A DNA stretch of 64,000 bases from Paludibacteraceae bacterium (GTDB taxonomy: Bacteria > Bacteroidota > Bacteroidia > Bacteroidales > Paludibacteraceae), in assembly GCA_045600225.1 (NCBI GenBank), contig JAZRXL010000040.1, positions 2,733 through 66,732 of the forward strand, given 5' to 3'. A program made the translations under genes and the position numbers. The notes under the pieces were generated by a model, which was not told the origin of the DNA, made no database searches, and was given only the letters and a program-made list of their open reading frames with translations. This document shows, in pieces, positions 9,899-43,569 of the stretch (positions are counted from its first letter, which is position 1; each line of letters starts with the position of its first letter).

Positions 9899-9945
9899 GC
9901 AAAAAGCAAAAAAAGTGGACCATCCACAAAACGGTGGACCACTTT
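9899..9945 (-). terminator. Rho-independent terminator after the 572-aa gene
   Basis: Hairpin AAAGTGG...CCACTTT with inner TCCAC/GTGGA pairing. On the minus strand it is followed by CTTTTTTTGCTTTTT. Confidence 0.6.
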
Positions 9946-9991: not shown

Positions 9992-11710
9992 CTATTTGTC
10001 AAGAACAGCACGAATACTCAAGCCATAGTATCTCATATTGTGTACAATTTGAGCGTAATGACCTGCAGAACCTGGTTGCAACTTCATACTGCCTGCAACA
10101 ATGGTACTCTCTTCCGACATGTCATTGGCCCAATAATATCCATATACTCCTACATAGTTATTGGTCGAAGTAGTACCAGTCATAGATGAACCTGCAGGGA
10201 AATATAACTTATTTCCGTTAGGTCCTACTGCAATATAAAGGTGGTTTGTTTCATCTCTTTCCCAAGTACACTCTTTTATCAACTCTTCAAAGTCAGCAAT
10301 AGAAGGCATGTGCCACTGACCACCCATCTTTACTCGTGCCACATCATCCGTCAAAGACAAGGATGTTTTCTTGTCAGACGAATTATATTTGCTATATTCT
10401 CCCTTTGCTGAATCGTAAGAGTAAGCATAGTTTGATCGAGAGAAATCTGCATCTTTATCTTTTCCCGTATTGGTAGTTTCTCCCCATGAGAAATACTCTC
10501 CGTAGTCAGATGGCGAACTTGCACCTATATTCGCAGTTGCCCACTTCTTTCCACTTTTCAATCCTAGATCCACATACGCGTAACCATTGTAACGGCATGC
10601 GTTTGATGCATCGTCAATCTCTGCCTGAAGCCTTTCGTTCTCTGATTTCAACTTTGCATTTTCATCAGTCAAACTCTCGTTCTTTGTTTTTAGTTCCGAG
10701 CCCTCCGATTTCAACTGCTCATTTTCACTAGTCAAACTCTCATTCTTTGTTTTCAATTCTGAGTTCTCCGATTTCAACTTTGTATTTTCACTAGTCAGAC
10801 TCTCATTTTTTGTTTTTAGTTCCGAGTTCTCTGGCTTCAATTGGTCATTCTCTGCTGTCAACGTAGAAATTTGCTTCTCGTATTCTGATTTGATCTGCTC
10901 GACTTCAGCAGATGATGTGCAATCATCATTTCCATACAGATCTTTTTCTGAAAATACCGGACGAACCATCATACCTATGTATTCCCAACCTTTCGTATCG
11001 TCAACTCCAGAAAACAAGCCTTTTGTCGTATATGAGTACGCAATATTTAAAGCATAACATTGGGTTGATGTCCAGTACATTCCGCATGGGAATTCGTCAT
11101 AGTGTTTAATTTTAGGATTTTCTTCATCATCTTGTGGGGTATAAAAAGGGAAGAAGATAGAATTTCCGTTGATTTTAGATGTGTACAAGAATCCAGAAAC
11201 CGATGACCCGTTGTAATTTTCGATCCACTCTTCAACACAATTATACATCAACTCTTCAAACTCTTCCTTCGTAGGCATTCTCCATGGTTTATCCAACGCA
11301 CGTCTTGCATGATCACTCTTTCCTACCAATATTCCATTCTCAATATTAGGTTCGCCATGTGTTGAACAATAGTTAGCCTTATTGAACTTTCCTTCATGCG
11401 CCCAATTTTCTCCCCAAGCATACAATGTTCCTTTTTCGTAAGGACGAGAGGCCCACAGGTTACTAACTGCCCACTTCACACTTAATCCTAAATCCACATA
11501 CCCCCATTGATCCAAGACAAATCCATTAGAGTCTTTACGCGGAACAAATCCTGTATAACTTGAACCTTCTTCGTAGGTAACACGTTTTACATTTTCCACA
11601 GAGAAAGTGACCTTCGTATTGTCAGAATTCTCTACTACCATCTGCGTATTAGCGGCAAACGCATTTACCAATGCAAATATCGCCAACACCGACATCACAA
11701 TTTTTTTCAT
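9992..11710 (-). CDS. Secreted protein with two FISUMP/DUF1566-like lectin-type domains joined by a repetitive coiled coil
   Basis: Signal peptide MKKIVMSVLAIFALVNAFA. Two copies of the pattern (V/K)KWAxxN(L/I)...Y(A/F)(A/S)WGE...W(R/H)MP(T/S)xx(E/D)FEEL...YW. Central ENSELKTKNESLTSEN repeats. Confidence 0.65.
   Translation of the reverse strand: MKKIVMSVLAIFALVNAFAANTQMVVENSDNTKVTFSVENVKRVTYEEGSSYTGFVPRKDSNGFVLDQWGYVDLGLSVKWAVSNLWASRPYEKGTLYAWGENWAHEGKFNKANYCSTHGEPNIENGILVGKSDHARRALDKPWRMPTKEEFEELMYNCVEEWIENYNGSSVSGFLYTSKINGNSIFFPFYTPQDDEENPKIKHYDEFPCGMYWTSTQCYALNIAYSYTTKGLFSGVDDTKGWEYIGMMVRPVFSEKDLYGNDDCTSSAEVEQIKSEYEKQISTLTAENDQLKPENSELKTKNESLTSENTKLKSENSELKTKNESLTSENEQLKSEGSELKTKNESLTDENAKLKSENERLQAEIDDASNACRYNGYAYVDLGLKSGKKWATANIGASSPSDYGEYFSWGETTNTGKDKDADFSRSNYAYSYDSAKGEYSKYNSSDKKTSLSLTDDVARVKMGGQWHMPSIADFEELIKECTWERDETNHLYIAVGPNGNKLYFPAGSSMTGTTSTNNYVGVYGYYWANDMSEESTIVAGSMKLQPGSAGHYAQIVHNMRYYGLSIRAVLDK
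10643..10831 (-). repeat. 3 x 63-bp in-frame tandem repeat (21-aa ENSELKTKNESLTSENxxLKS units)
   Basis: Read directly: units at 10769..10831, 10706..10768 and 10643..10705, with degenerate partial units flanking them. Confidence 0.85.
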
Positions 11711-11730
11711 TATCTTATCTTTTAATTTTA

Positions 11731-12204
11731 TTATTTACGAACGATTTTGAATGATAGAGTACCTATAGTCAAAACATAGACTCCCTTAGCCGATGGCAAT
11801 TGTAGTGTTGCTTCTCCTTCTGCGTTTGCCTCTACCAATGCCAACGTAATTCCATTCACACTGAACAATGCGATCTTCTCCGACGCTTTTACATTTTTTA
11901 TATTCACAATGTCTTCTTCCACATAAAACAAAACAGGGGCATCGCCAGAAACAATTTCCGACTTCACTGATCCTTGTGTTTCTTCTGTGAAACGATACTC
12001 CTTCACATCTGCAAAGGCATAAGATGTAGATGACTTCCCATTCACAACAAGTTGTGACTCATTGTAGGTAATCACAGGTTTTTCCGACAAGGCGAAATCA
12101 ATTGTCTTGCCAGACTTTAACTCAATCGTCATGTATGTTGTAGCCTGACTAGCCGACAAACATCCACCCAAAAGAGTTAAAGCTAATAAATGTTTGAAAT
12201 TCAT
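11731..12204 (-). CDS. Small secreted protein with a T9SS type A (Por) C-terminal sorting domain
   Basis: 157 aa. Signal MNFKHLLALTLLGGCLSASQA. C-terminus IALFSVNGITLALVEANAEGEATLQLPSAKGVYVLTIGTLSFKIVRK fits the Por secretion tail pattern. The stop lies 20 nt before the 572-aa gene's ATG, so the two look like one operon. Confidence 0.7.
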   Translation of the reverse strand: MNFKHLLALTLLGGCLSASQATTYMTIELKSGKTIDFALSEKPVITYNESQLVVNGKSSTSYAFADVKEYRFTEETQGSVKSEIVSGDAPVLFYVEEDIVNIKNVKASEKIALFSVNGITLALVEANAEGEATLQLPSAKGVYVLTIGTLSFKIVRK

Positions 12205-12247
12205 ATTTATAAATTTATGACTTATAATTTCTAATTTTTTTCGGTTG

Positions 12248-12255
12248 CAAAAATA
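12248..12255 (-). promoter_or_regulatory. -7 box TATTTTTG for the 157-aa/572-aa operon
   Basis: Plus-strand CAAAAATA is the reverse complement of TAnnTTTG, 44 nt upstream of the ATG at 12204. Confidence 0.5.
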
Positions 12256-12287
12256 ACAAAAAATCCTATAAAATTACCCGGCATTTC

Positions 12288-12301
12288 TTGATTTACATCA
12301 A
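12288..12301. promoter_or_regulatory. Perfect FNR-type palindrome TTGAT-TTAC-ATCAA
   Basis: Read directly. It lies 32 nt upstream of the -7 box, and a homologous site exists at 18790..18803. Confidence 0.5.
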
Positions 12302-12342
12302 ACAGTCAAAGACATTGCCACCGATTATACATAGGTATATTT

Positions 12343-12425
12343 CCCGTGGGCGTTACCATGGGCGAATGCAATTCGGTCCAATTGTGTACATTGTTTGCCA
12401 CGGGCGAATGCAATTCACCCCTACC
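12343..12425 (-). repeat. Two degenerate copies of the 42-bp hairpin unit (GGGCGAATGCAATTC...)
   Basis: ccatgggcgaatgcaattcggtcc and gccacgggcgaatgcaattcacccctac. The TAG stop of the 1304-aa gene (12421..12423) lies in the CCCCTAC part of the unit. Confidence 0.8.
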
Positions 12426-15400
12426 TAATTAACGCAAAATGTCCCGTATATTCCCTATCGATTTCTCTCAATTGGATGACATACCAATAATCTGTACTTG
12501 GCATCGGATGTCCGTTATAGGTTCCGTCCCAACCGTCGAACTCGTTATCTATCTCTATCAATAGTTTTCCGAAACGGTCGTAGATACTGACGGTATAGTA
12601 GTTGTAATAGTCCAAATTCTCCACCTCCCATAGGTCATTGACTCCGTCTCCATCTGGAGTCATTATCTCTGCCGGAATAATCTGAACCGCCAAAGAGACC
12701 ACCGAGTCTGCCTGACAGCCCTTTGAATCCATCACCTTCACCAACATCGGCGCTGGAGAGAACTTGGTAGGATAGGTATTCTCCATCTGCCATGGTTCTG
12801 TTCTCCAGAAATATTGGTAACCTGGCGTTCCTCCACTCACCTCCATCGCCAACCATTGGAACGCATCCTCATAGTAGACCGTATCGATCCGAGGATTCTC
12901 CAACACGGCAACTTCCACCGTAAACGAATCTTCACACACCTCGTCTGTCACGTTCACCCTGTAGGTTATATCCGCCACGCCCGCCATGGACGGAGTACTC
13001 TCATTCGTTGAGCTTAGATATGCCGACGGTGTCCACGTATAGTGCAGATTCTCGCAACAGTTTGGCTTGAATCGATAGGTTTCTCCTTCGCATATCTCTA
13101 CCGACACCTGCTCTTCCAATCCAAACTTCGGACGGGTATCTATACGCAACATTCGGATCGTATCATCCTTCAACGTACTCTCGTCGGTATAGTAGCCGTC
13201 ACCAATGTAGCTTCCGCCTCGCCAATCTACATAATGGTCGGGACATGGATCCACAAACAACGTGTCGTAGGTAAAGACATGCAGACTCAAATGCAACAGA
13301 CTATCGCAACCATAGATGGTTTGCTTCAAAAGTTCGTGCGTATAGTCACCCACATCCTTGTGAGTCAGGTTGAAGCCATGACGGGTAAAGAGGTCATTCA
13401 CCTTGACCGTATCGATCAAATAAGTATCCTTGGTCTCATGGACCGTCAACTGCAACGTCACGATACTATCACAGCCATGGATCGTCTTCAACTCATCCAC
13501 ATACGTACCAGCCACCGTATATGGTTTGCCTCCAAAGATAAACTCTTCTCCGTCGCAGATTGTATCGTGTACAGTTACATGGAAGGTATCATGCACAGTC
13601 AAATACAACGTCACAATGCTATCACAACCATAAATGGTCTTTAGTTCGTCAACATAGCTACCTGCCTTCGTGTAAGGATTGCCTCCGAAGATATATTCAT
13701 CTCCGTTGCAGATAGTGTCATAAACAGATACATGGAAGGTATCGTTTACAGTCAAATGCAACGTCACAATGCTATCGCAACCATAAATGGTCTTTAGTTC
13801 GTCAACATAGCTACCTGCCTTCGTGTAAGGTTTGCCTCCGAAAATATATTCATCTCCATTACAGATTGTATCCTTTACCGTCACATGGAAGGTATCATGG
13901 ACTGTCAACTGCAACGTCACGATACTGTCGCAGCCGTGGATCGTTTTCAACTCATCTACATACGTACCTGCCACTGTATATGGCTTGCCTCCGAAGATAT
14001 ACTCGTCTCCATCACAGATTGTATCGAGTACGGTTATATGGAAGGTATCATGCACCGTCAAGTACAACGTCACGATACTGTCACAACCATGGATGGTCTT
14101 CAGTTCGTCCACATAGCTTCCTGCTACTGTGTATGGATTTCCTCCGAAGATATATTTCTCTCCGTTGCAGATGGTATCATAGACAGAGACGTGGAAAGTG
14201 TCGTGCACCGTCAAGTACAAGGTGACGATACTGTCGCAACCATAAATCGTTTTCAGTTCGTCAACATATTTGCCAGACGTCTTATAGGTCTTTCCACCAA
14301 AGATGTATCGCTCTCCGTTGCAGATCGTATCATAGACTGAGACGTGGAAGGTATCGTTCACCGTCAAATGTAACGTCACAATACTATCACAACCATAGAT
14401 GGTCTTCAGTTCATCTACATATTTGCCTGATGTCTTATAAGTTTTTCCACCAAAGATGTATCGCTCTCCATTGCAGATAGTGTCATAAACAGACACGTGG
14501 AACGTATCATGCACAGTCAAATACAACGTCACAATACTATCGCAACCATAAATGGTCTTTAGTTCGTCAACATAGCTACCTGCCTTTGTGTAAGGTTTGC
14601 CTCCGAAGATATATTCATCTCCGTTGCAAATAGTGTCATAAACAGACACATGGAAGGTATCGTTCACCGTCAAATGCAACGTCACAATACTATCGCAACC
14701 ATAAATGGTCTTCAATTCATCTACATATTTGCCCGACTTTTTATAAGTCTTTCCGCCAAAGATGTATTGTTCTCCATTGCAGATGGTGTCATAGACTGAG
14801 ACGTGGAAGGTGTCCAATACGACCAACTCCAAGGTGACGATACTATCTCGTCCTGTGACAGACTTCAACTCATCCACGTAGGTATCCGCTTCAGTCAATT
14901 TCTTTCCTCCAAACAGATACTCTTCTCCCCTACAGATGGAGTCTACGATGGTCGTATCCAGTGGACCCAAAACATTCAGCGTCAGGCGTACTAGACTATC
15001 GCAACCGGCAGCTGTCTTGAGCGACAACTCATGCACATCGCTCGTAGTCTGGGAAGGCAGGTTGAATCCATGCTTCTTGTAGGTCTCTCCCATGCCAACA
15101 GAATCCATGATACCGACTTGATAGGTGGTGTCGACAGTCAGTGCCAACACTGTGGTATGTTTGCATCCGTTGCTACCCGTTGTCTCCACGCTATAGTAGT
15201 TCAGTCCGCAAGAGAGTCCGGCAGGAAGATCGAAGCCATGGCGTCCATACTCCTCCGTCTGGCAGATACGATCGCGCACAGTATCGCGGGTAAGTGGTAG
15301 GACATTCAAGGCAAGTGTCACCGTACTGTCGCATCCGAAAGCTGTGTTCAGATAGGCAGTGTCTTTGTAGACTCCCGCCGCCGTTGCCTTGATGGCGAAG

Positions 15401-16335
15401 CCGTTTTTATTGTAGTATTCCCCTTGGCAGACCTTGTCGGTCAGATTCGTCTTCTTATTGGGCATCACCACCAGTTGGAGGGTTGTGGTGACATCACACT
15501 CACCATTCTCACCTTTCAGTGTCTTTTTGTAGGTTCCGCTCCTTGTCGCCGAGAAACCGAACTTCTCGTAGGTATATCCTTCACAGATGGTATCCTTGAT
15601 AACGGTTGGTGTGGAGGTATTGACAATGATGGTCTTCTCAGCCTTAGCCTGACAGCCATAGTTGTTGGTAGCAGTCACCTCGTAGGTAAAGGTTTTCTTT
15701 GCCTCCTCCACAATCACGCGGCTAGTAGCACCTGTGTTCCACTCATAGGAGATGGTCTCGTCGTACTCTGTATCATCAAAATCTTTTACCAAGAAGAATG
15801 AATTTTTCTCCCTTTGACTTACCGGCTCGAATATTTTCCAAGTTTGAGTATAGCACCAATTATAGCCACTCCCCGCCTCCGTACTCGTTTGAAAGTCATA
15901 ATGTCCGAAAAGGAAATCAGCACTACCTCCCAAATAACCACGGTTGGCCAGCAAATGAAATATTTGCCCAACGGAAGGAACATACCAACCATTCTTGAGT
16001 GATGAAAAATAGGGGTATGCATTTTCATCCCCAGCCTCACGTAATGTCATCGAATTACCATACCCATCAAGATCACCCATCGCTTCTTCTAACGTTTCAT
16101 AATCAGGTAAGGGGCTATTATTATTTTCCCTATTAGAGAAAGCCGCTTTCACAATAGGTTGCTGATCATTGAAGACCCATCCGCTATTGCCATCTTCACT
16201 AAGATAAAAAATAATACCAGATTCACCATTTTCAAAGAAATATCGCTCTCCTAAAAAATGTCTCGCATTCATAGAGGAACAAATGAACCATAAACTAATG
16301 ACAAGGGCAATATGCTTACAATATGATTTGCTCAT
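12421..16335 (-). CDS. Large repetitive surface protein with an N-terminal DUF1566-like domain, about 15 Cys-containing 51-aa modules and a T9SS type B C-terminal domain
   Basis: 1304 aa with a signal-like N-terminus. GIIFYLSEDGNSGW...NGWYVPSVGQIFHLLAN. Repeats DTxCxGxxYxFGGxxYxxxGxYVDELKTIxGCDSIVTLxLTV. C-terminus IPAEIMTPDGDGVNDLWEV...IYDRFGKLL...WDGTYNG...YWYVI is the type B CTD pattern. Confidence 0.85.
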   Translation of the reverse strand: MSKSYCKHIALVISLWFICSSMNARHFLGERYFFENGESGIIFYLSEDGNSGWVFNDQQPIVKAAFSNRENNNSPLPDYETLEEAMGDLDGYGNSMTLREAGDENAYPYFSSLKNGWYVPSVGQIFHLLANRGYLGGSADFLFGHYDFQTSTEAGSGYNWCYTQTWKIFEPVSQREKNSFFLVKDFDDTEYDETISYEWNTGATSRVIVEEAKKTFTYEVTATNNYGCQAKAEKTIIVNTSTPTVIKDTICEGYTYEKFGFSATRSGTYKKTLKGENGECDVTTTLQLVVMPNKKTNLTDKVCQGEYYNKNGFAIKATAAGVYKDTAYLNTAFGCDSTVTLALNVLPLTRDTVRDRICQTEEYGRHGFDLPAGLSCGLNYYSVETTGSNGCKHTTVLALTVDTTYQVGIMDSVGMGETYKKHGFNLPSQTTSDVHELSLKTAAGCDSLVRLTLNVLGPLDTTIVDSICRGEEYLFGGKKLTEADTYVDELKSVTGRDSIVTLELVVLDTFHVSVYDTICNGEQYIFGGKTYKKSGKYVDELKTIYGCDSIVTLHLTVNDTFHVSVYDTICNGDEYIFGGKPYTKAGSYVDELKTIYGCDSIVTLYLTVHDTFHVSVYDTICNGERYIFGGKTYKTSGKYVDELKTIYGCDSIVTLHLTVNDTFHVSVYDTICNGERYIFGGKTYKTSGKYVDELKTIYGCDSIVTLYLTVHDTFHVSVYDTICNGEKYIFGGNPYTVAGSYVDELKTIHGCDSIVTLYLTVHDTFHITVLDTICDGDEYIFGGKPYTVAGTYVDELKTIHGCDSIVTLQLTVHDTFHVTVKDTICNGDEYIFGGKPYTKAGSYVDELKTIYGCDSIVTLHLTVNDTFHVSVYDTICNGDEYIFGGNPYTKAGSYVDELKTIYGCDSIVTLYLTVHDTFHVTVHDTICDGEEFIFGGKPYTVAGTYVDELKTIHGCDSIVTLQLTVHETKDTYLIDTVKVNDLFTRHGFNLTHKDVGDYTHELLKQTIYGCDSLLHLSLHVFTYDTLFVDPCPDHYVDWRGGSYIGDGYYTDESTLKDDTIRMLRIDTRPKFGLEEQVSVEICEGETYRFKPNCCENLHYTWTPSAYLSSTNESTPSMAGVADITYRVNVTDEVCEDSFTVEVAVLENPRIDTVYYEDAFQWLAMEVSGGTPGYQYFWRTEPWQMENTYPTKFSPAPMLVKVMDSKGCQADSVVSLAVQIIPAEIMTPDGDGVNDLWEVENLDYYNYYTVSIYDRFGKLLIEIDNEFDGWDGTYNGHPMPSTDYWYVIQLREIDREYTGHFALIR
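13438..14814 (-). repeat. 9 x 153-bp near-identical in-frame tandem repeats
   Basis: 1377 bp = 9 x 153. Each unit encodes DTFH(V/I)(S/T)V.DTIC(N/D)G..(Y/F)IFGG..Y....G.YVDELKTI(Y/H)GCDSIVTL.LTV(N/H). Confidence 0.95.
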
Positions 16336-16338
16336 TTC

Positions 16339-18666
16339 TCAAAAATGTTTAAATTGACGAATGGTTAAAGGAACAGCATCCCCAAATAAAAAAGTATGGA
16401 AATTAGGAATATTTAGATAATGAAAATAAGAAGTATTTGGAGTAATGCTCGAGGCCATAAAATAGTTTTCCGAATCCACATACATTTCACCACCTATCAT
16501 AGATAATGATTGATTAATCTTAGATAAATTTGCCATAACCGAATACATTTCACCTACTGCTGGAACATACCAACCATTATCAAAATCAACATCTTCAAAT
16601 ATATGGTATTTCAGACTTTTATAATATATATTATTTTCAATAATCTCCTGTAAAGTTGAAGACATCTTCTCCCCATCATTAAACGCGTCATTAAATAACG
16701 GTGCCGTGACGAGACCACCATGTAGATAAGAAAAAACCCGTTCAATGTATGGATTTCCCATTCCAGGATAAACACTTTTTGTAAGATTTGTGATTGCTCC
16801 ATGTTCTCCCGTGTCATCCAAATAAACAACCACGCCTTCTGCAGTCTTGTTGCTTTTTGCAAATTCATCCGGATGGAGAATCGTTCCATCCGTACAATAA
16901 ATGTCTCCCACCTTTATTCTATCATCCTCCTTTTTCTCGTAATCCAAACCTCCCTTGGCTGTCAGTTTTATCTCCTTGCCTTCACAAAGAACAGAGTCGC
17001 CATCCAAGTCAATACGCACCTTCACCTCGGGTGCCACTACAAGACTCAACACCACCAAACTATCACAACCATAGACGGTCTGCAAGTTTTTATTTCGAAC
17101 GATTTTTCCCTCCTCGCTAAGCGTTCCCAAATTAAAACCATACTTCGAGTATTTTGTACCAATACAAACCGTATCGAAATAAACCTTTTTGTAATTCTCG
17201 TGTACATTTAACTTGACACTTTGCGTTTTGGAGTTACATCCATTACCCGCAGTCAACGAAATTGTTTTTGTACCACTATCCTCGAAATCGAGACTCAATG
17301 TAGGCGAATATGAAACATGTTCAACGCCACCTTCCTTCCACTTCCACTGATAAGTAGAAAGATCCTCACCACCCTTAGCAATGAACACAGCAGGCTCTCC
17401 TTCACAAACATTCAAAGGTCCCTCTATCGTAGGAAAAACGGGTAGTTGACTCACAGTCAGACGTAACGTATAATATTGAGGATAACTCTCTCTACATGTT
17501 GTACACGGCAACGTGTCATAATAAGTTCCGACTGCAGGTTTGATGTATCTAAAACCATACTCTTCAAAACTTTCGCCCTCACAAATACCTTTTGAAATTT
17601 GAATATACGGTTTTTTACTATCCAACTTAATTCGTATCTTCTTCCCCACCTTAAAGGCACAAGTGGCAGGGTCGTAATAATTCATGATTACCTCCCTAGC
17701 TGCATCCGTAGGCAAAACAATTCCATCCACTTCATAAGAATCACCTGTCGTCACTGTCACCTCGTAATCTTCTGCTTTGATATTAGAAAGGGAGGTTATC
17801 ACTCCAACCAGCACGAACTCAGAGCCAGTAGCAGAACGGACAATACACGAAACAGAACTGTTCGTGGTATTCTTTGGAACTGTAGTGCTACGCTCCGTGG
17901 AACCGTTGCTCCACTTGTAAGAAGCAAAACCTTCTGGAGCTGAGAATGTCACTTTATCACTCTGACACCTTTCCACATAGAGTGTTTTCTCTATGCATTC
18001 TGCCGTAAAATAGGCGTATGCGAAATGCTCAAAAGCACCACAGTCGTAGGTGGAAATGCGTATTTGGACTTCTTGCCCCACTTTGGAAGATAAATCCACT
18101 CCCATGCTCGACCAATCACACCAAATAATACTGCTTCCCAGCTTTCCCTTTTGAGCAGATGTGTGAAAACCAGCGGCATTGGCGCTGGCATAGACGTCGT
18201 AACTAGAATTGTCATTGATCAATCTGCCACTCACATCCAACACCTGAAGGTTGAAGCGTGGCTGTTCGTCCTTGGCGTGCCCTGGATTCTCCATCACCAC
18301 CGCATAGCGTAGCTTCAATATAGGATTATCGGCATTCACCCTGAAATGGTAGACCAACACGTCTGTCTCGGCCTCAGCCAAATCATTGCCCAAGCGAACC
18401 ACACTCGTAGTTCCCTCTGGAAGCAACTTCAACTTGTTGTCTGTATAGGGATCTGTTCCTTGCGTGGAGATAACCGTGTGGCGACCCTCCACGACTCCCT
18501 TATCCTGCATCGGTTCCCAAGTACGACCGGTATATGCCTCTACATACGAGGCGCCCAAATTGGTCAAATCAGGACAACCATTATAGACCGTATATCCACT
18601 GGCCGAAAAAATAGTCGATAGTAATACTAATAAAACGAAAAACGTCCTTCTAAAATATGAAACCAT
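16339..18666 (-). CDS. Secreted protein with an N-terminal beta-rich domain, Cys-repeat modules and a C-terminal DUF1566-like domain; no recognisable T9SS CTD
   Basis: 775 aa. Signal MVSYFRRTFFVLLVLLSTIFSASG. Modules ICEGESFEEYGF... and VCIGTKYSKYGF...YGCDSLVVLSLVV. C-terminus EGVVVYLDDTGEHG...NGWYVPAVGEMYSVMAN. The stop is 3 nt before the 1304-aa gene's ATG. Confidence 0.75.
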   Translation of the reverse strand: MVSYFRRTFFVLLVLLSTIFSASGYTVYNGCPDLTNLGASYVEAYTGRTWEPMQDKGVVEGRHTVISTQGTDPYTDNKLKLLPEGTTSVVRLGNDLAEAETDVLVYHFRVNADNPILKLRYAVVMENPGHAKDEQPRFNLQVLDVSGRLINDNSSYDVYASANAAGFHTSAQKGKLGSSIIWCDWSSMGVDLSSKVGQEVQIRISTYDCGAFEHFAYAYFTAECIEKTLYVERCQSDKVTFSAPEGFASYKWSNGSTERSTTVPKNTTNSSVSCIVRSATGSEFVLVGVITSLSNIKAEDYEVTVTTGDSYEVDGIVLPTDAAREVIMNYYDPATCAFKVGKKIRIKLDSKKPYIQISKGICEGESFEEYGFRYIKPAVGTYYDTLPCTTCRESYPQYYTLRLTVSQLPVFPTIEGPLNVCEGEPAVFIAKGGEDLSTYQWKWKEGGVEHVSYSPTLSLDFEDSGTKTISLTAGNGCNSKTQSVKLNVHENYKKVYFDTVCIGTKYSKYGFNLGTLSEEGKIVRNKNLQTVYGCDSLVVLSLVVAPEVKVRIDLDGDSVLCEGKEIKLTAKGGLDYEKKEDDRIKVGDIYCTDGTILHPDEFAKSNKTAEGVVVYLDDTGEHGAITNLTKSVYPGMGNPYIERVFSYLHGGLVTAPLFNDAFNDGEKMSSTLQEIIENNIYYKSLKYHIFEDVDFDNGWYVPAVGEMYSVMANLSKINQSLSMIGGEMYVDSENYFMASSITPNTSYFHYLNIPNFHTFLFGDAVPLTIRQFKHF

Positions 18667-18745
18667 AAAATCTCTTTAAAATAGTGAGAAGTGAGACATG
18701 TGAAATGCAAAACGAGTAATTTCTGACTTCTATCTTTTTCAGTTA

Positions 18746-18753
18746 CAAATATA
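18746..18753 (-). promoter_or_regulatory. -7 box TATATTTG for the 775-aa/1304-aa operon
   Basis: Plus-strand CAAATATA, 80 nt upstream of the ATG at 18666. The flanking sequence is roughly 70% identical by eye to the 12243..12310 promoter region. Confidence 0.5.
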
Positions 18754-18774
18754 ACAAAAAAAACTTTTAATTTA

Positions 18775-18782
18775 CCCCCCCC
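18775..18782. repeat. C8 homopolymer (G8 on the sense strand) between the palindrome and the -7 box
   Basis: tttacccccccc read directly. An adjacent A8 run lies at 18756..18763. Confidence 0.9.
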
Positions 18783-18789
18783 ATAATTC

Positions 18790-18803
18790 TTGATTTATAT
18801 CAA
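18790..18803. promoter_or_regulatory. Perfect FNR-type palindrome TTGAT-TTAT-ATCAA
   Basis: Read directly, 36 nt upstream of the -7 box. Confidence 0.5.
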
Positions 18804-18820
18804 TGTAATTTACTCCTACA

Positions 18821-19236
18821 ATGTGCATTGTTTACCATGGGCGAATGCAATTCACCCCTACTGTGCGCATTGTTCAACATGGGCGAATGCAATTCGCCTC
18901 TACTGTGCGCATTGTTCAACATGGGCGAATGCAATTCGCCCTGTGCGCATTGTTCAACATGGGCGAATGCAATTCGCCTCTACTGTGTGCATTGTTCAAC
19001 ATGGGCGAATGCAATTCGCCCCTACTGTGCGCATTGTTCAACATGGGCGAATGCAATTCGCCTCTACTGTGCGCATTGTTCAACATGGGCGAATGCAATT
19101 CGCCCCTACTGTGCGCATTGTTCAACATGGGCGAATGCAATTCGCCCCTACTGTGCGCATTGTTCAACATGGGCGAATGCAATTCGCCTCTACTGTGTGC
19201 ATTGTTCAACATGGGCGAATGCAATTCGCCCCTACT
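18821..19236 (-). repeat. Tandem array of 10 hairpin-bearing units (nine of 42 bp, one of 38 bp)
   Basis: Unit GTG(C/T)GCATTGTTCAACATGGGCGAATGCAATTCGCC(C/T)CTACT. Unit boundaries at 18821, 18863, 18905, 18943, 18985, 19027, 19069, 19111, 19153 and 19195. Each has an 8-bp stem GGGCGAAT/ATTCGCCC and a 3-nt loop. There are no variable spacers. Confidence 0.95.
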
Positions 19237-20608
19237 CATTTCTAATTTCTAAATATTTTTCGATATTTTCCTCAAACCCCTTCACTCGTTTTTTGCTCTT
19301 ATTCTTCTTAAACCATTCAGACACACGAATTCGTTCGGAAAACTTCTTTCCCGCATCAATCGAACGACAACCCAGTTCGTTTTTTACAAGTGTCACTCTG
19401 TCATATAGACCCTGATCCGCACCAAACGTTTCGAACAACAGCGAATCGCCCACAAAAGAGATGCGTTGATAGTATCTGTCGTCCGTTCCCCATTTATCCA
19501 CATCACCCTTAAACTCCATGATGTAGTCCTTCTGAGAAGCATAGGAAACGACTCGCACGGGAGAATACTCATTGCCCAGCTTCATATTGCTCCGTGCATA
19601 CACATGTTCATGGCCCTGTAATACCAAATCGACTTTATACTTCACAACCAAATCATCGAAATAGTAGCGTTGGAAAAGGTTATTCATCGTACCTTTGGTG
19701 GAATGCAACGGATGGTGAAGCACTACAATCTTCCATTTTTCGGCCGTTTTATCCAACTCAGTTTCCAACCATTCCCTCTGTTTGGGCAACTTCCAGAAAT
19801 CCTTGTTGGAATCCAAGAAGAAGAAACGAGCATCTCCTTTTGCGAACGTGTAGAGCGCATTATCTGCATTTTGTTCCATTGTATTCAAGAAATAAGGGAA
19901 CGTCAACGGAAAGCGTCGTTCCAACGTGCGTGTCACACCTTTCAAATATTCATGATTACCCGCAACTGCCAGAATTGGATATCTTGTTGCAAACGTATCC
20001 AACGAACGGAACACCACGTTCCAGTACTGATCCATCGGACGTTCGATCAGATCACCACCAAACAGCAAGAATGAGGACTCTGAATTCGCCGCCATCACCT
20101 TAGGCAACAGCGTGTCAAAACCGCCATCCAGATCATCCTGCACATCCCCGAAATAGAGGAATGAGAAATCCTTGTTGTTATTTTTTATGAAACAAAACCA
20201 TTCCGTACTGTCCTTCTCCGAGCGTATTCGATAACACCAAACACCTTCTTCGTTTACATTCTTTATTTGCGCTCTATGAAATGCAGCCACGCCAGAACGA
20301 GAATGGTAAACCTCACACTCCGACGACAACGTAATCGTATCGGACGACCCTGGTCTTACATAATCCAGCCAACACGGATGCGGCAAGGAGTCATATTGCC
20401 ATGTTACATATCTCGACTCCGAATCATCCCCCATGGTAAGCAGAACTCGTGACGGATGGTGCTGAACATCGTAAGTTGGCTCAGGAGGATTACCAAACCA
20501 AGTATTCCATCGAACGACACACAATACGACGATAGCGATCAATAAACACGCAAAAAAAATCTTCTTCTTCATAAACAAAAAAGAGACGAAATTTGCACTT
20601 CGTCTCAT
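19232..20608 (-). CDS. Metallophosphoesterase (calcineurin-like / purple-acid-phosphatase-like)
   Basis: 458 aa with an N-terminal TM/signal segment. Motifs GDVQDD, GGDLIE, GNHEY, VVLHHPL and GHEHVY. Confidence 0.8.
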   Translation of the reverse strand: MRRSANFVSFLFMKKKIFFACLLIAIVVLCVVRWNTWFGNPPEPTYDVQHHPSRVLLTMGDDSESRYVTWQYDSLPHPCWLDYVRPGSSDTITLSSECEVYHSRSGVAAFHRAQIKNVNEEGVWCYRIRSEKDSTEWFCFIKNNNKDFSFLYFGDVQDDLDGGFDTLLPKVMAANSESSFLLFGGDLIERPMDQYWNVVFRSLDTFATRYPILAVAGNHEYLKGVTRTLERRFPLTFPYFLNTMEQNADNALYTFAKGDARFFFLDSNKDFWKLPKQREWLETELDKTAEKWKIVVLHHPLHSTKGTMNNLFQRYYFDDLVVKYKVDLVLQGHEHVYARSNMKLGNEYSPVRVVSYASQKDYIMEFKGDVDKWGTDDRYYQRISFVGDSLLFETFGADQGLYDRVTLVKNELGCRSIDAGKKFSERIRVSEWFKKNKSKKRVKGFEENIEKYLEIRNE

Positions 20609-32764: not shown

Positions 32765-32774
32765 TAAAATTTCG

Positions 32775-33169
32775 TGGAGATGCAGGGGTTCGAACCCTGG
32801 TCCAAACGAGGAAATCATAAGCTTTCTACATGCTTATTCCTGCCTAGATTTTCGTACGATAGCAAGACCAGGACCACCAACTACCGTCTTATCCTCTAAA
32901 ATTTCATTTAGATATCGAGGCCTACCTAAACTATTCCTGAATTTTCCGCTCCTCCGTATCCGACCGCCTCAGGACTTAGCATCGGGGAGAAGTCTTGTCC
33001 AAACACCCGTGTCTGGATTAAGCCAGTAATCTACTATTATTCGATTAGGCAGCAAGAGCAAAGTTATTCTCGCCAGTTAAATTTTTGGTCTCCAAGATTA
33101 TAGTGCTAGCCACCAGCGCACTGCATGCTTACTTACCACTTCTGCCCGCTGTCAAATCCAGTCATCCCC
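32775..33169 (-). ncRNA. ssrA: tmRNA (transfer-messenger RNA)
   Basis: The 5' end GGGGATGACTGGATTTGACAGCGG pairs with the 3' end GCATCTCCA, giving an acceptor stem with G3:U. T-arm GGGTTCGAACCCC. The internal tag ORF GGC GAG AAT AAC TTT GCT CTT GCT GCC TAA encodes GENNFALAA (33044..33073). Confidence 0.93.
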
Positions 33170-43327: not shown

Positions 43328-43404
43328 TGGTGATCGAGGAGGGATTCGAACCCTCGACCCACAGCTTAGAAGGCTGTTGCTCTATCCAACTGAGCTACCC
43401 GACC
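43328..43404 (-). tRNA. tRNA-Arg (anticodon TCT)
   Basis: GGTCGGGTAGCTCAGTTGGATAGAGCAACAGCCTTCTAAGCTGTGGGTCGAGGGTTCGAATCCCTCCTCGATCACCA. It folds as a cloverleaf and the CCA is encoded. Confidence 0.92.
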
Positions 43405-43495: not shown

Positions 43496-43569
43496 TAGCG
43501 GGATCGAGAATTGAACTCGAGACCTCCGGGTTATGAATCCGACGCTCTAACCAACCGAGCTCTCCCGCC
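43496..43569 (-). tRNA. tRNA with CAT anticodon (Met; Ile2 or initiator not excluded)
   Basis: GGCGGGAGAGCTCGGTTGGTTAGAGCGTCGGATTCATAACCCGGAGGTCTCGAGTTCAATTCTCGATCCCGCTA. The cloverleaf folds with the CAT anticodon in the right place, and the CCA is not encoded. Confidence 0.8.

Follow-up and report, generated by a model that had tools for sequence, protein, structure and literature searches.

Two gene pairs for adhesin-like surface proteins in a Bacteroidales genome lie behind a duplicated segment of REP elements and a predicted sigma-ABfr promoter with a candidate Crp/Fnr operator

Introduction

Repeats that supply genes with protein-binding sites or promoters include the Correia elements of Neisseria and the BIME/RIP IHF-site elements of E. 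coli. The large repetitive adhesins of the SprB type in Flavobacterium are type B cargo of the type IX secretion system (T9SS). REP elements tagged by GTAG often provide the TAG stop codon of a gene and form head-to-tail clusters (PMC3733652); a 2013 survey reported GTAG repeats only from Proteobacteria, Cyanobacteria, Chloroflexi and the PVC group. On the promoter side, TTGAT-N4-ATCAA is the classical consensus of the FNR/FixK box (PMC7888657, PMC2908626), and TAnnTTTG is the -7 consensus of the sigma-ABfr type (PMC7366714).

Here we describe a region in which parts of these kinds come together. It lies in a 64-kb stretch of an uncultured Bacteroidales genome (the window, to which all coordinates refer) and is a lineage-specific cluster encoding four secreted surface proteins, arranged as two gene pairs. 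Locus A denotes the region 5' of the 775+1304 pair and locus B the region 5' of the 157+572 pair, the numbers being protein lengths in residues.

Gene layout and comparison with relatives

The four minus-strand reading frames named in a preliminary description of this DNA are all in the ORF list at the sizes given there (Table 1). Their upstream neighbour is a metallophosphatase-type gene, on whose same-species copy Pfam Metallophos is found. No terminator of the GC-hairpin-plus-T-tract type follows either the 1304-aa or the 458-aa gene. We infer transcription start positions, operon boundaries and promoter activity from the sequence.

Table 1. Features of the gene cluster and its upstream regions, by position in the window
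Feature	Position	Strand	Remark
572-aa secreted protein gene	9992-11710	-	ORF; 20-nt gap behind the 157-aa gene
157-aa secreted protein gene	11731-12204	-	ORF
1304-aa protein gene	12421-16335	-	ORF; 3-nt gap behind the 775-aa gene
775-aa secreted protein gene	16339-18666	-	ORF
458-aa metallophosphatase-type gene	19232-20608	-	ORF; upstream neighbour
Canonical intrinsic terminator	9908-9945	-	GC hairpin and T7; closes the 157+572 unit
Hypervariable cassette, about 1.0 kb	15783-16798	-	Across the 775/1304 gene junction; encodes both DUF1566-like modules
Locus A array of 10 GTAG-tagged REP units	18825-19236	-	Head to tail, 42-bp period
Locus A palindrome TTGATATAAATCAA	18790-18803	.	Perfect; FNR/FixK-type box
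Locus A G8 homopolymer	18775-18782	-	Between palindrome and -7 box
Locus A -7 box TATATTTG	18746-18753	-	Sigma-ABfr type; 775+1304 operon; inside conserved core TTTTTTGTTATATTTGTAAC
Locus B REP units (two)	12402-12420 and 12360-12378 (feature 12360-12424)	-	GTAG head 12421-12424
Locus B palindrome TTGATGTAAATCAA	12288-12301	.	Perfect; FNR/FixK-type box
Locus B -7 box TATTTTTG	12248-12255	-	157+572 operon; 43 nt upstream of the ATG

In the relatives examined only the 775+1304 pair is kept. Neither the REP nor the palindrome is present in any of them, and the intergenic module as a whole is absent from every one; the quartet of genes with conserved upstream elements that the preliminary description had envisaged is therefore not upheld. 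In the syntenic relative L267 the intergenic region measures 65 nt and holds the core promoter only, this core, TTTTTTGTTATATTTGTAAC, being conserved. Four others (L139, L140, L141 and L142) have an intrinsic terminator and a short promoter in place of the module.

The surface proteins

Signal-peptide-like N-terminal sequences are visible in all four translations, as had been claimed, and the four products are adhesin-like, with DUF1566/Lcl_C-type modules on the 775-aa, 1304-aa and 572-aa proteins. The 775-aa protein begins with a conserved domain for which there is no family model, continues with a PKD_6 domain and Cys-containing repeats, and ends in a DUF1566/Lcl_C-like module (residues about 585-775) with no T9SS tail. 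In the 1304-aa protein an N-terminal DUF1566-like module is followed by Cys-containing repeats, each about 51 aa long (9 copies of a 153-bp tandem unit, 13432-14811), and the protein closes with a type B T9SS C-terminal domain. The latter, already suspected, scores 99 bits with TIGR04131 against a cut-off of 35, and export or anchoring by T9SS can be regarded as established for this protein.

The earlier assignment of DUF1566/FISUMP modules to three proteins holds in part: the DUF1566 family is correct for the 572-aa protein, direct HMM search does not find it in the 775-aa and 1304-aa proteins, and FISUMP is not supported, matching the 572-aa protein far below threshold and being absent from the other two in direct HMM searches. 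The module that ends the 775-aa protein is homologous to the N-terminal one of the 1304-aa protein. Support for calling them DUF1566-like comes from a homologue that exceeds the Pfam threshold and from matches to 4EPS and to the Lcl C-terminal domain. Both modules are encoded by a hypervariable cassette (Table 1): blastn against L141 gives about 95% identity in both flanks and no match inside, with an identical gap in L139, L140 and L142, and at the protein level the cassette module is roughly one-third identical while the adjoining core is almost 100% so.

The 572-aa protein carries a pair of DUF1566/Lcl_C-like domains (residues about 56-262 and 368-571), with 21-aa repeats forming a coiled coil between them (63-bp tandem, 10637-10831); its homologues are annotated DUF1566 almost without exception, and no orthologue was found outside the species. 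The type A T9SS tail ascribed to the 157-aa protein is a borderline case, with 20.9 bits for TIGR04183 against a cut-off of 23. In the AF2 model its C-terminus forms a seven-strand beta-sandwich like that of a type A tail (pLDDT 61-86 in the C-terminal half), and the fold-search matches are generic Ig-like folds, including the T9SS substrate domain 8gl8_D. Export or anchoring of this protein by a type A-like tail is plausible, and its LGGC motif suggests that it is possibly a lipoprotein. It has a single non-self homologue, whose gene stands alone elsewhere.

The hairpins as GTAG-tagged REP elements

The hairpin units do begin at the stop codon of the upstream gene, whose TAG at both loci directly abuts the first hairpin. 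Reading the locus A junction directly, the TAG stop of the 458-aa gene (19232-19234) is the 'TAG' of the first REP's GTAG head; likewise, the TAG stop of the 1304-aa gene is the head of the first locus B REP. Each unit of the locus A array consists of a 19-nt hairpin, GGGCGAATTGCATTCGCCC (8-bp stem, 3-nt loop, about -12.3 kcal/mol), and a 23-nt linker. TRF reports the array as a 42-bp tandem repeat of 9.9 copies with 94% matches, and an 11th, degenerate unit extends into the palindrome. At up to two mismatches there are 12 units of GGGCGAATTGCATTCGCCC (10 at 18839-19231 and 2 at 12360-12420; 0.01 expected by chance) and none elsewhere in the 64 kb. The linker between the locus B REPs is homologous to that of the array, agreeing at 16 of 23 positions. 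The locus B units are kept in the same-species contigs L144 and L146, and L143, an independent contig of the species, ends within the locus A array.

Beyond the window, exact copies of the 19-mer were found in 19 viral and over 120 metagenome stretches, with fewer than one expected by chance (an estimate for the viral collection). Of 167 copies elsewhere, 128 bear the GTAG head, as do 10 of the 12 window units. The 139 REP-bearing loci contain 129 singletons and 33 inverted dimers, tandem arrays being rare, and nine of these loci hold members of one Y1/RAYT gene family. Two of the three family members scanned reach 24.6-28.5 bits on Pfam Y1_Tnp (cut-off 23), the third scores 20.0, and the family matches NCBIfam REP_Tyr_transpos with E of about 1e-17. 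By these marks we identify the hairpins as GTAG-tagged, RAYT-associated REP elements, which occur in hundreds of unrelated contexts and are not a private regulatory part. Since they have no T-tract, they are not canonical terminators either.

The duplicated segment, its palindrome and its promoter

That the two upstream regions are paralogous, as the preliminary description had it, proved correct: the homology extends from the REP units and their linker through palindrome, spacer and -7 box into the beginning of the 5' UTR. Aligned from the palindrome onward, the two loci agree in 70 of 100 columns (78% of the ungapped ones), in line with the earlier figure of about 70% for the spacer. Searched against the whole window by blastn, locus A recovers locus B (E = 1.3e-12), and nhmmer finds no third copy of the block in the 64 kb, within which REPs and blocks are confined to these two loci. 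Of 226 REP units elsewhere none is followed by the 23-nt linker common to both loci and none by the palindrome, so that REP and promoter are seen linked at just two loci of one species; a block-specific pattern found no copies in the metagenome or viral collections. Judged by alignment, the intergenic module (REP, 23-nt linker, palindrome and promoter) is one segment of about 200 bp or more that is present twice. The duplicated segment is real, yet lineage-specific and assembled from known kinds of parts.

The perfect TTGAT-N4-ATCAA palindromes are indeed present at both loci and are the only two in the window, where 0.33 would be expected; no further site at up to one mismatch occurs in the mapped intergenic DNA of the window. 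Both palindromes were copied from one ancestral sequence, and hence their perfection counts as one event and not as two independent signs of selection. The TAnnTTTG boxes, read directly from the sequence at both loci, lie downstream of the palindromes by 36 nt at locus A and 32 nt at locus B, a difference of 4 nt that is due to the G8 tract of locus A, the sole G/C run of at least 7 bases in the 64 kb. The same 17-mer is found 55-59 nt upstream of -7 boxes at 19 loci counted in Prevotellaceae and related genomes, six of which drive FopS sRNA genes; this fixed position shows that Bacteroidales employ the motif as a positioned element upstream of promoters. The 4-nt difference, together with the departure from the 55-59 nt of FopS-type promoters, is awkward for an activator that depends on the face of the helix. 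No Crp/Fnr gene is among the ten small window ORFs scanned.

Proposed explanation and its alternatives

We propose, with a probability of roughly 0.6, that each pair lies behind a duplicated segment in which stop-codon-donating RAYT-type REPs are joined to a sigma-ABfr promoter with a candidate Crp/Fnr operator. The segment would comprise two functionally separate halves. In the 5' half, REPs have settled on the TAG stop codons of the upstream genes, which they now supply, and at locus A have been amplified head to tail to 10 units. Enterobacterial REPs suggest by analogy that their probable target is the upstream transcript, where they might act as 3' stability barriers, as partial terminators or as brakes on translation termination; that they belong to the downstream promoter is improbable. 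The 3' half is a predicted sigma-ABfr-type promoter that carries a TAnnTTTG -7 box, and its core is ancestral at the 775-aa gene, as the syntenic relative shows. To this the palindrome, centred about 39-43 nt upstream of the -7 box, would have been added in this lineage, most likely as the operator of a Crp/Fnr-family dimer; we infer that both pairs are co-controlled through it.

The preliminary description had instead taken hairpins, palindrome, spacer and -7 box for a dedicated four-part module, evolved to co-regulate a conserved four-gene adhesin system, with the hairpins as terminator-insulators or RNA-level switches. All four elements do follow one another in identical order at the two loci and are confined to them within the 64 kb, and the promoter-nearest REP ends in an ATGGTAA junction at both; however, a generic REP without a T-tract, which in none of 226 copies elsewhere precedes the palindrome, and the absence of quartet and elements from all relatives examined make this reading quite improbable. 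We would give as small a chance to a portable REP-associated promoter cassette, copied by REP/RAYT-mediated or REP-templated recombination and phase-variable at locus A through G8 slippage that alters the operator-promoter spacing. Such a cassette would account for the duplication of the whole module down to its genome-specific linker, for the replacement or extension of a simple ancestral promoter, and, by the position of G8, for the unequal spacing, and the surface-protein genes already show cassette-like hypervariability. Against this, only two copies are known, none being found in the collections by the block-specific pattern; the window holds no RAYT gene; and, to our knowledge, phase variation in Bacteroidales does not usually work through homopolymers.

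The similarity might also be a mere footprint, left when an ordinary constitutive promoter region was recently copied by segmental duplication or gene conversion, the palindrome binding nothing and the pairs not being specifically co-regulated. In favour of this, both palindromes descend from one sequence and so count as a single event, the spacing is not conserved, there is no third site in the window, and the closest relatives drive the same operon without a palindrome. We consider it unlikely, since the block has diverged to about 70-78% identity while both 5-nt half-sites are still perfect, the sole difference within the 14-mer falls in the non-specific centre, and many Bacteroidales promoters have the identical 17-mer as a positioned upstream element.

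Comparison with known systems

The nearest counterpart of the 5' half is the GTAG REP/BIME system with its RAYT (TnpA_REP) in E. coli, Pseudomonas and others (PMC3733652, PMC2817692, PMC3479197), with which it shares the short GC-rich hairpin bearing an unpaired GTAG at one end, extragenic copies directly 3' of genes that often donate the TAG stop, the occurrence as singletons, inverted dimers and head-to-tail clusters, and recurrence beside Y1/RAYT genes. It differs in its Bacteroidales host, in the sharing of an identical 19-mer by contigs of 30-60% GC from many habitats, in the presence of the 19-mer inside the RAYT reading frame itself, and in an array of 10 units that stands at the large end for the family, with one comparable array found, in L155.

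As for the proteins, the sequence profile and predicted fold of the 775-aa C-terminal module match two DUF1566/Lcl_C adhesin domains, the C-terminal ones of the GAG-binding Legionella adhesin Lcl (PDB 8Q4E; PMC11162425) and of BACOVA_04982, a fimbrial protein of Bacteroides ovatus (PDB 4EPS), and the W-x-x-P...L core motif is shared. In contrast to these, the 775-aa and 1304-aa modules score nothing directly on the Pfam model and carry a helical insertion, where model confidence is lower, and their carrier proteins are neither pilins nor collagen-like. The 1304-aa protein resembles the SprB-type adhesins in being large and repetitive with a TIGR04131/CHU_C C-terminal domain; unlike them, it is built from a 51-aa Cys-containing unit that has no family model, and no PorP/SprF-like partner gene was seen adjoining its gene.

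The palindrome is a perfect match to the 'anaerobox' of FNR/FixK/CRP-family promoters and sits a short way upstream of the promoter core, but the host uses sigma-ABfr promoters of the -7/-33 and not the -10/-35 type, and the box centre would fall at roughly -50 to -55 instead of -41.5 or -61.5. Finally, whereas in this genome the promoter part lies outside the dispersed repeat, the arrangement recalls the Correia and BIME/RIP elements in linking a small dispersed palindromic repeat to a promoter or binding site before surface-protein genes.

A duplicated segment upstream of both gene pairs

The four minus-strand ORFs, of exactly the sizes claimed in the preliminary description, form two tightly packed pairs, with gaps of 3 nt (775/1304) and 20 nt (157/572). 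The intergenic region upstream of the 775+1304 pair (locus A) and that upstream of the 157+572 pair (locus B) share one succession of elements, a module made of REP units, a 23-nt linker, a palindrome, a spacer and a -7 box; we term its promoter half, from the palindrome onward, the block. A blastn search of the whole window with locus A retrieves locus B at E = 1.3e-12. From the palindrome onward, 70 of 100 alignment columns are identical (78% of ungapped positions), as the approximately 70% originally judged by eye for the spacer had indicated. The linker agrees between array A and locus B at 16 of its 23 positions, and nothing like it follows REPs elsewhere, where even the closest sequence differs at 10 or more positions; at A and B alike, the REP next to the promoter terminates in an ATGGTAA junction; and the REPs, like the blocks, are visible in the window genome at just these two loci within 64 kb, nhmmer finding no third block copy in the window. 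The common linker, the common junction and the confinement to two loci thus justify the term paralogous for the whole segment, and the module is a real duplicated segment before two operons for secreted, lectin-like proteins. Elsewhere none of 226 REP units has TTGAT-N4-ATCAA within 200 nt, and a block-specific gapped pattern gave no match in metagenome and viral collections: REP and promoter block are separable in general, yet have been copied together in this genome.

Features of the adhesin region and RNA genes of the window
Feature	Positions	Strand	Remark
775-aa gene	16339-18666	minus	ORF
1304-aa gene	12421-16335	minus	ORF
157-aa gene	11731-12204	minus	ORF
572-aa gene	9992-11710	minus	ORF
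REP array, locus A	18825-19236		42-bp tandem repeat, 9.9 copies, upstream of 775-aa gene
Open frames over REP array	18790-19415		five of six frames open
Palindrome, locus A	18790-18803		perfect TTGAT-N4-ATCAA
G8 run, locus A	18775-18782		C8 on plus strand
-7 box, locus A	18746-18753		TATATTTG
Palindrome, locus B	12288-12301		perfect TTGAT-N4-ATCAA
-7 box, locus B	12248-12255		TATTTTTG
N-terminal domain of 775-aa protein	17970-18600		residues ~25-230
Flank matching L141	18594-16799		95.7% DNA identity
Gap relative to L141	15783-16798		no detectable DNA similarity
Flank matching L141	15782-14782		94.9% DNA identity
Tandem repeat in 1304-aa gene	13432-14811		153 bp, 9 copies, 459-bp higher-order period
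Tandem repeat in 572-aa gene	10637-10831		63 bp, 3.1 copies
Terminator 3' of 572-aa gene	~9908-9945		canonical
tmRNA gene	32772-33169	minus	Rfam
tRNA gene	43331-43404	minus	Rfam
tRNA gene	43496-43569	minus	Rfam

The 572-aa gene is followed by a canonical terminator. After the 1304-aa gene and after the 458-aa gene, a metallophosphatase-type neighbour upstream of locus A, there are just REP hairpins without a T-tract, so that read-through from both into the downstream pairs is possible. A sigma-70 promoter scan was uninformative (24 matches against 24.6 expected). Above threshold, the Rfam scan of the window returned only the tmRNA and two tRNAs, and nothing in the adhesin region.

The hairpins are GTAG-REP units

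The preliminary description had taken the hairpins for one of four elements of a regulatory module. At up to 2 mismatches the hairpin GGGCGAATTGCATTCGCCC occurs 12 times in the window, 10 times upstream of the 775-aa gene and twice upstream of the 157-aa gene, with 0 other copies in the 64 kb (chance expectation 0.01). The 19-nt unit has a stem of 8 bp and a loop of 3 nt (about -12.3 kcal/mol), and a GTAG head is present on 10 of the 12 window units and on 128 of 167 copies in other contigs. As originally noted, the first hairpin directly adjoins the TAG stop codon of the upstream gene at locus A and at locus B; that stop codon is itself the TAG of the GTAG head. The exact 19-mer recurs in 19 IMG/VR contig stretches and more than 120 metagenome stretches and is dispersed over more than 139 public contigs, which span ~30 to 60% GC; the samples of origin were gut, soil, freshwater, marine and wastewater. 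At up to 2 mismatches the 139 loci have 226 units, which occur as singletons (129), as inverted dimers (33) and in a few tandem arrays; the longest array, at locus L155, has 8 units at a 45-bp period. A class of palindromic repeats tagged by GTAG, precisely as here, has been described by Di Nocera et al. (PMC3733652).

When all ORFs of the 139 REP-bearing loci were compared with one another, one protein family emerged, in 9 of the loci, with the HUH and Tyr motifs of a Y1 transposase (HRRSIRLKGYDY ... MPNHxHGI ... WQRNYYEHIIR), resembling the RAYTs (REP-associated tyrosine transposases). Of three members scanned with Pfam Y1_Tnp, two score 24.6-28.5 bits and the third 20.0 (cut-off 23); two scanned with NCBIfam REP_Tyr_transpos reach 63-65 bits (E ~1e-17), below the equivalog cut-off of 80. 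These reading frames include the REP 19-mer between their HUH and Tyr motifs, translated as RGELHSP or, from the opposite strand, GECNSP; this embedding probably explains the uniform conservation of the hairpin sequence. The window itself holds no RAYT gene or remnant by tblastn with RAYT sequences, the matches being translated REPs only. The GTAG heads, the dispersal, the recurrence of RAYT-like genes and the published class (PMC3733652) together identify the first of the four supposed regulatory elements as an ordinary REP cluster, GTAG-tagged and of a RAYT-associated family. It is an element of a known kind, and its 19-mer is not confined to these loci.

Some further features of these repeats may be recorded. 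The RAYT-like genes with an embedded 19-mer are at L155:565-913, L258, L212, L264, L196, L186, L184, L176 and L265, and the 8-unit tandem array of L155 lies inside its RAYT-like ORF. In the GC-rich, viral-labelled IMG/VR contigs L120-L136 the REP belongs to a larger conserved composite, with two inverted REPs ~85 bp apart around further hairpins (...CCATTAGACGGCCCCC...GGGCCGAATAAATATGTCCGG...GGGACGTCTGTAGGGCG). In the window, the frames left open by the array can mislead gene callers, since they give rise to false ORFs (107-195 aa) composed of repeated peptides such as SRGELHSPMLNNAH. A CRISPR-like array was considered and rejected, its would-be spacers being identical linkers. Searching the full text of the literature for the hairpin sequence gave no match.

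Promoter, palindrome and G8 run

The TAnnTTTG -7 boxes are present at both loci and fit the sigma-ABfr consensus TAnnTTTG (PMC7366714). The -33 TTTG is absent from both, with a conserved GGGTAA in its place; some Bacteroidota reportedly dispense with this element or lack it (PMC7366714). A perfect TTGAT-N4-ATCAA indeed stands upstream of each pair, these being its sole occurrences in the window, and it corresponds to the textbook FNR/FixK 'anaerobox' (PMC7888657, PMC2908626).

A scan of GTDB genomes for TTGATNTAAATCAAGAA, an extended form of the palindrome motif, gave at least 119 loci, mostly chance background and with the source genome not among them; none of those listed has the block or a REP. 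Among the matches in Prevotellaceae, Paraprevotella and Bacteroidaceae genomes, 19 loci were counted with the motif 55-59 nt upstream of TAnnTTTG, and 6 of these 19 boxes drive Rfam FopS sRNA genes. This recurrence at one spacing shows the sequence to serve as a positioned upstream element in the Bacteroidales order, and for that reason the palindrome is most likely a Crp/Fnr-type operator. Both half-sites have stayed perfect at both loci since the duplication, the surrounding block having drifted to ~70-78% identity. Against an operator stand the distance from palindrome to -7 box, which differs between the loci (36 nt at A, 32 nt at B), the descent of the two sites from one ancestral sequence, so that they are not independent, and the absence of a Crp/Fnr gene among the ten small window ORFs scanned and of a further palindrome box in the window. 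As an IHF site, the flank of the palindrome matches WATCAANNNNTTR just imperfectly, by eye. The PM2 motif of B. thetaiotaomicron is centred at -10/-30 (PMC7366714), in a text that gives no sequence; we do not equate it with the palindrome, since its position differs. A literature search for a published Cur/BT4338 binding motif was unproductive. Against an invertible promoter, there are no flanking inverted repeats, and the palindrome occurs just twice, in the same orientation. Co-regulation of both pairs through the FNR-type palindrome is plausible.

The motif was seen in the form TTGAT[N]TAAATCAAGAA, 55-59 nt upstream of TAnnTTTG, in Prevotellaceae, Paraprevotella, Bacteroidaceae and Lentimicrobiaceae genomes; the FopS-associated loci are L034, L045, L078, L110, L112 and L114, and others include L012, L015, L017, L035, L050, L052, L054, L061, L070, L100 and L101. 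The FopS paper makes no mention of an upstream palindrome element.

The 4-nt difference in spacing between A and B is due to a G8 run that separates palindrome from -7 box at locus A; no other G/C homopolymer in the 64 kb reaches 7 bases. Slipped-strand phase variation, as at the Bordetella fim promoters, classically has this layout, with a homopolymer separating activator site and core promoter; by this analogy the G8 run is a candidate slipped-strand switch.

Domain architecture of the four proteins

The models for T9SS C-terminal domains are TIGR04131/PF13585 for type B and TIGR04183/PF18962 for type A. The type B tail proposed for the 1304-aa protein is firm, its C-terminus scoring 99.2 bits with TIGR04131 (cut-off 35) and 55.4 bits with CHU_C (cut-off 27). 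The 157-aa protein reaches 20.9 bits with TIGR04183 against a cut-off of 23 and has no match in a Pfam scan. Its AF2 model has a seven-strand C-terminal sandwich (pLDDT 61-86), and the fold search with it returned generic Ig-like matches, including the T9SS substrate domain 8gl8_D (TMt 0.59), which are weakly informative because the N-terminal half of the model is of low confidence. A type A tail on this protein is plausible. The 775-aa protein carries no T9SS tail.

DUF1566-like modules had been proposed for three of the proteins and are supported for all three, for two of them solely through intermediates. The direct case is the 572-aa protein, with 32.9 bits for DUF1566/Lcl_C (PF07603), below the cut-off of 34.9 (E 9e-8), two DUF1566/Lcl_C-like domains that each match the other's profile, and PF07603 on nearly all of the best 120 of its 5014 homologues. 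Homology joins the C-terminal module of the 775-aa protein to the N-terminal one of the 1304-aa protein (BLASTP 1e-6; profile E 1e-22), and neither directly matches PF07603 even at E up to 10. In P0020, a full-length homologue, the equivalent module does pass the Lcl_C cut-off (36.4 bits). With the profile of the 775-aa module family, PDB 4EPS is found at 6e-7 and 8Q4E, the C-terminal domain of Legionella Lcl, at 0.005, and the same two structures head a Foldseek search with the AF2 model of the module (pLDDT 80.9), 4EPS at E 2.7e-5 (probability 1.0) and 8Q4E at probability 0.80. Since hhalign of this family against that of the 572-aa domains gave a probability of 1.6%, on a W-x-x-P motif only, the link between the 775-aa and 572-aa modules rests on the Pfam and PDB intermediates. 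Lcl is a GAG-binding adhesin (PMC11162425), and it is from the predicted fold that we infer an adhesin function. The FISUMP-like modules of the preliminary description find no such backing: with TIGR02145 (FISUMP) and PF09603 (Fib_succ_major), the second domain of the 572-aa protein alone scores, far below the cut-offs (22.3 against 41.65 bits and 12.5 against 33.9 bits), and the 775-aa and 1304-aa proteins have no match.

The 63-bp tandem of the 572-aa gene encodes 21-aa coiled-coil repeats (ENSELKTKNESLTSEN.KLKS) joining its two domains. The tandem of the 1304-aa gene encodes a 51-aa Cys-containing repeat, C.G..Y.FGG..Y...G.YVDELKT..GCDSIVTL.LTV, which has no Pfam or NCBIfam model and whose type is also present in the 775-aa protein. 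The N-terminal domain of the latter (CPDFTDL ... GRHTVI ... QPRF ... GYAYFTA.C) is strongly conserved across ~35 homologues; it has no match among Pfam families, NCBIfam families or PDB sequences.

A hypervariable cassette at the 775/1304 junction

Comparison with L141, a contig locus from a relative, shows two closely similar flanks interrupted by a 1.0-kb gap that spans the 775/1304 junction and encodes exactly both DUF1566-like modules (Table). Protein identity in the N-terminal module is roughly one-third, against almost 100% in the adjoining core. The hole recurs at the relatives' loci L139, L140 and L142, where the flanks show mosaics of differing pattern; close relatives further diverge from one another in signal-peptide codons and promoter, upstream of 18594. 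With 1.0 kb of divergent DNA between ~95% identical flanks, both lectin-like modules behave as one swappable, hypervariable cassette; such variability is typical of surface ligand-binding domains under diversifying selection. Diversification of the DGR type was rejected: it is all of the 1 kb, not just a short variable region, that has diverged past recognition at the DNA level, and no reverse transcriptase is present among the annotated ORFs.

Distribution among relatives

Exact look-ups of the 157-aa and 775-aa proteins found no matching contig. In same-species contigs from other samples locus B is essentially unchanged (L144-L146) or the contig breaks off inside array A (L143), and these four are too close to inform on constraint. 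More distant relatives are informative. L267 has the synteny of the window: its 775-aa homologue (60% identical) lies downstream of a metallophosphatase gene (68%), with ~65 nt between them (TAG ... TTTTTGTTACTTTTGCAACT ... ATG) that keep the core promoter and have neither REP nor palindrome. In L139, L140, L141 and L142 (homologues 56-84% identical) a GH9 T9SS gene precedes the pair; a canonical intrinsic terminator and a short promoter are present, and REP and palindrome are again absent. That the 1304-aa homologue directly follows the 775-aa homologue is shown in L141 and inferred from DNA matches in the others; on these comparisons the 775+1304 pair is conserved across L139-L142 and L267. 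A search of 5.8 billion proteins gives the 157-aa protein one non-self homologue, P0201 (43% identity), whose gene is solitary, with its own promoter and a different neighbourhood. The 572-aa protein has a 95% same-species copy and no further orthologue, the next matches being generic DUF1566 proteins at up to 38% identity. With the 775+1304 pair alone conserved and the other genes scattered or absent, the quartet and its upstream module amount to a lineage-specific arrangement. The expected co-occurrence of quartet and upstream elements in relatives does not hold; the quartet is not a conserved system, an outcome that the preliminary description had itself named as refuting. Taken as a whole, the features it described are confirmed, and its interpretation has support in part.

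Implications

The most ambitious reading of these data would be a portable REP-linked promoter cassette with a Crp/Fnr-type operator, combined with a G8-slippage switch at locus A and a swappable 1-kb lectin cassette; we give it about one chance in ten. Were it true, a T9SS-linked adhesin pair in a Bacteroidales bacterium would undergo both ON/OFF and specificity variation, by homopolymer slippage and REP-mediated promoter spread and not by the invertase-based mechanism known for Bacteroidales.

The value of the present explanation lies mainly in annotation and comparison, and it opens no long-standing question. If right, it (i) corrects a misreading, in that stop-codon hairpins in Bacteroidales intergenic regions would be REPs and not gene-specific regulators; (ii) provides a concrete case of a REP cluster and an operator-bearing promoter duplicated together before surface-protein operons, useful for thinking on the spread of regulatory DNA; and (iii) flags a Crp/Fnr-type motif that in Prevotellaceae also precedes FopS-type sRNA promoters at constant spacing. 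All parts of the arrangement belong to known classes, namely REP/RAYT, sigma-ABfr promoter, Crp/Fnr box, DUF1566 and T9SS cargo. Among them, the explanation would document a GTAG-REP/RAYT family, with an unusually conserved hairpin embedded in the RAYT gene itself, in Bacteroidota, a phylum (Bacteroidetes) for which the 2013 survey (PMC3733652) lists no GTAG repeats.
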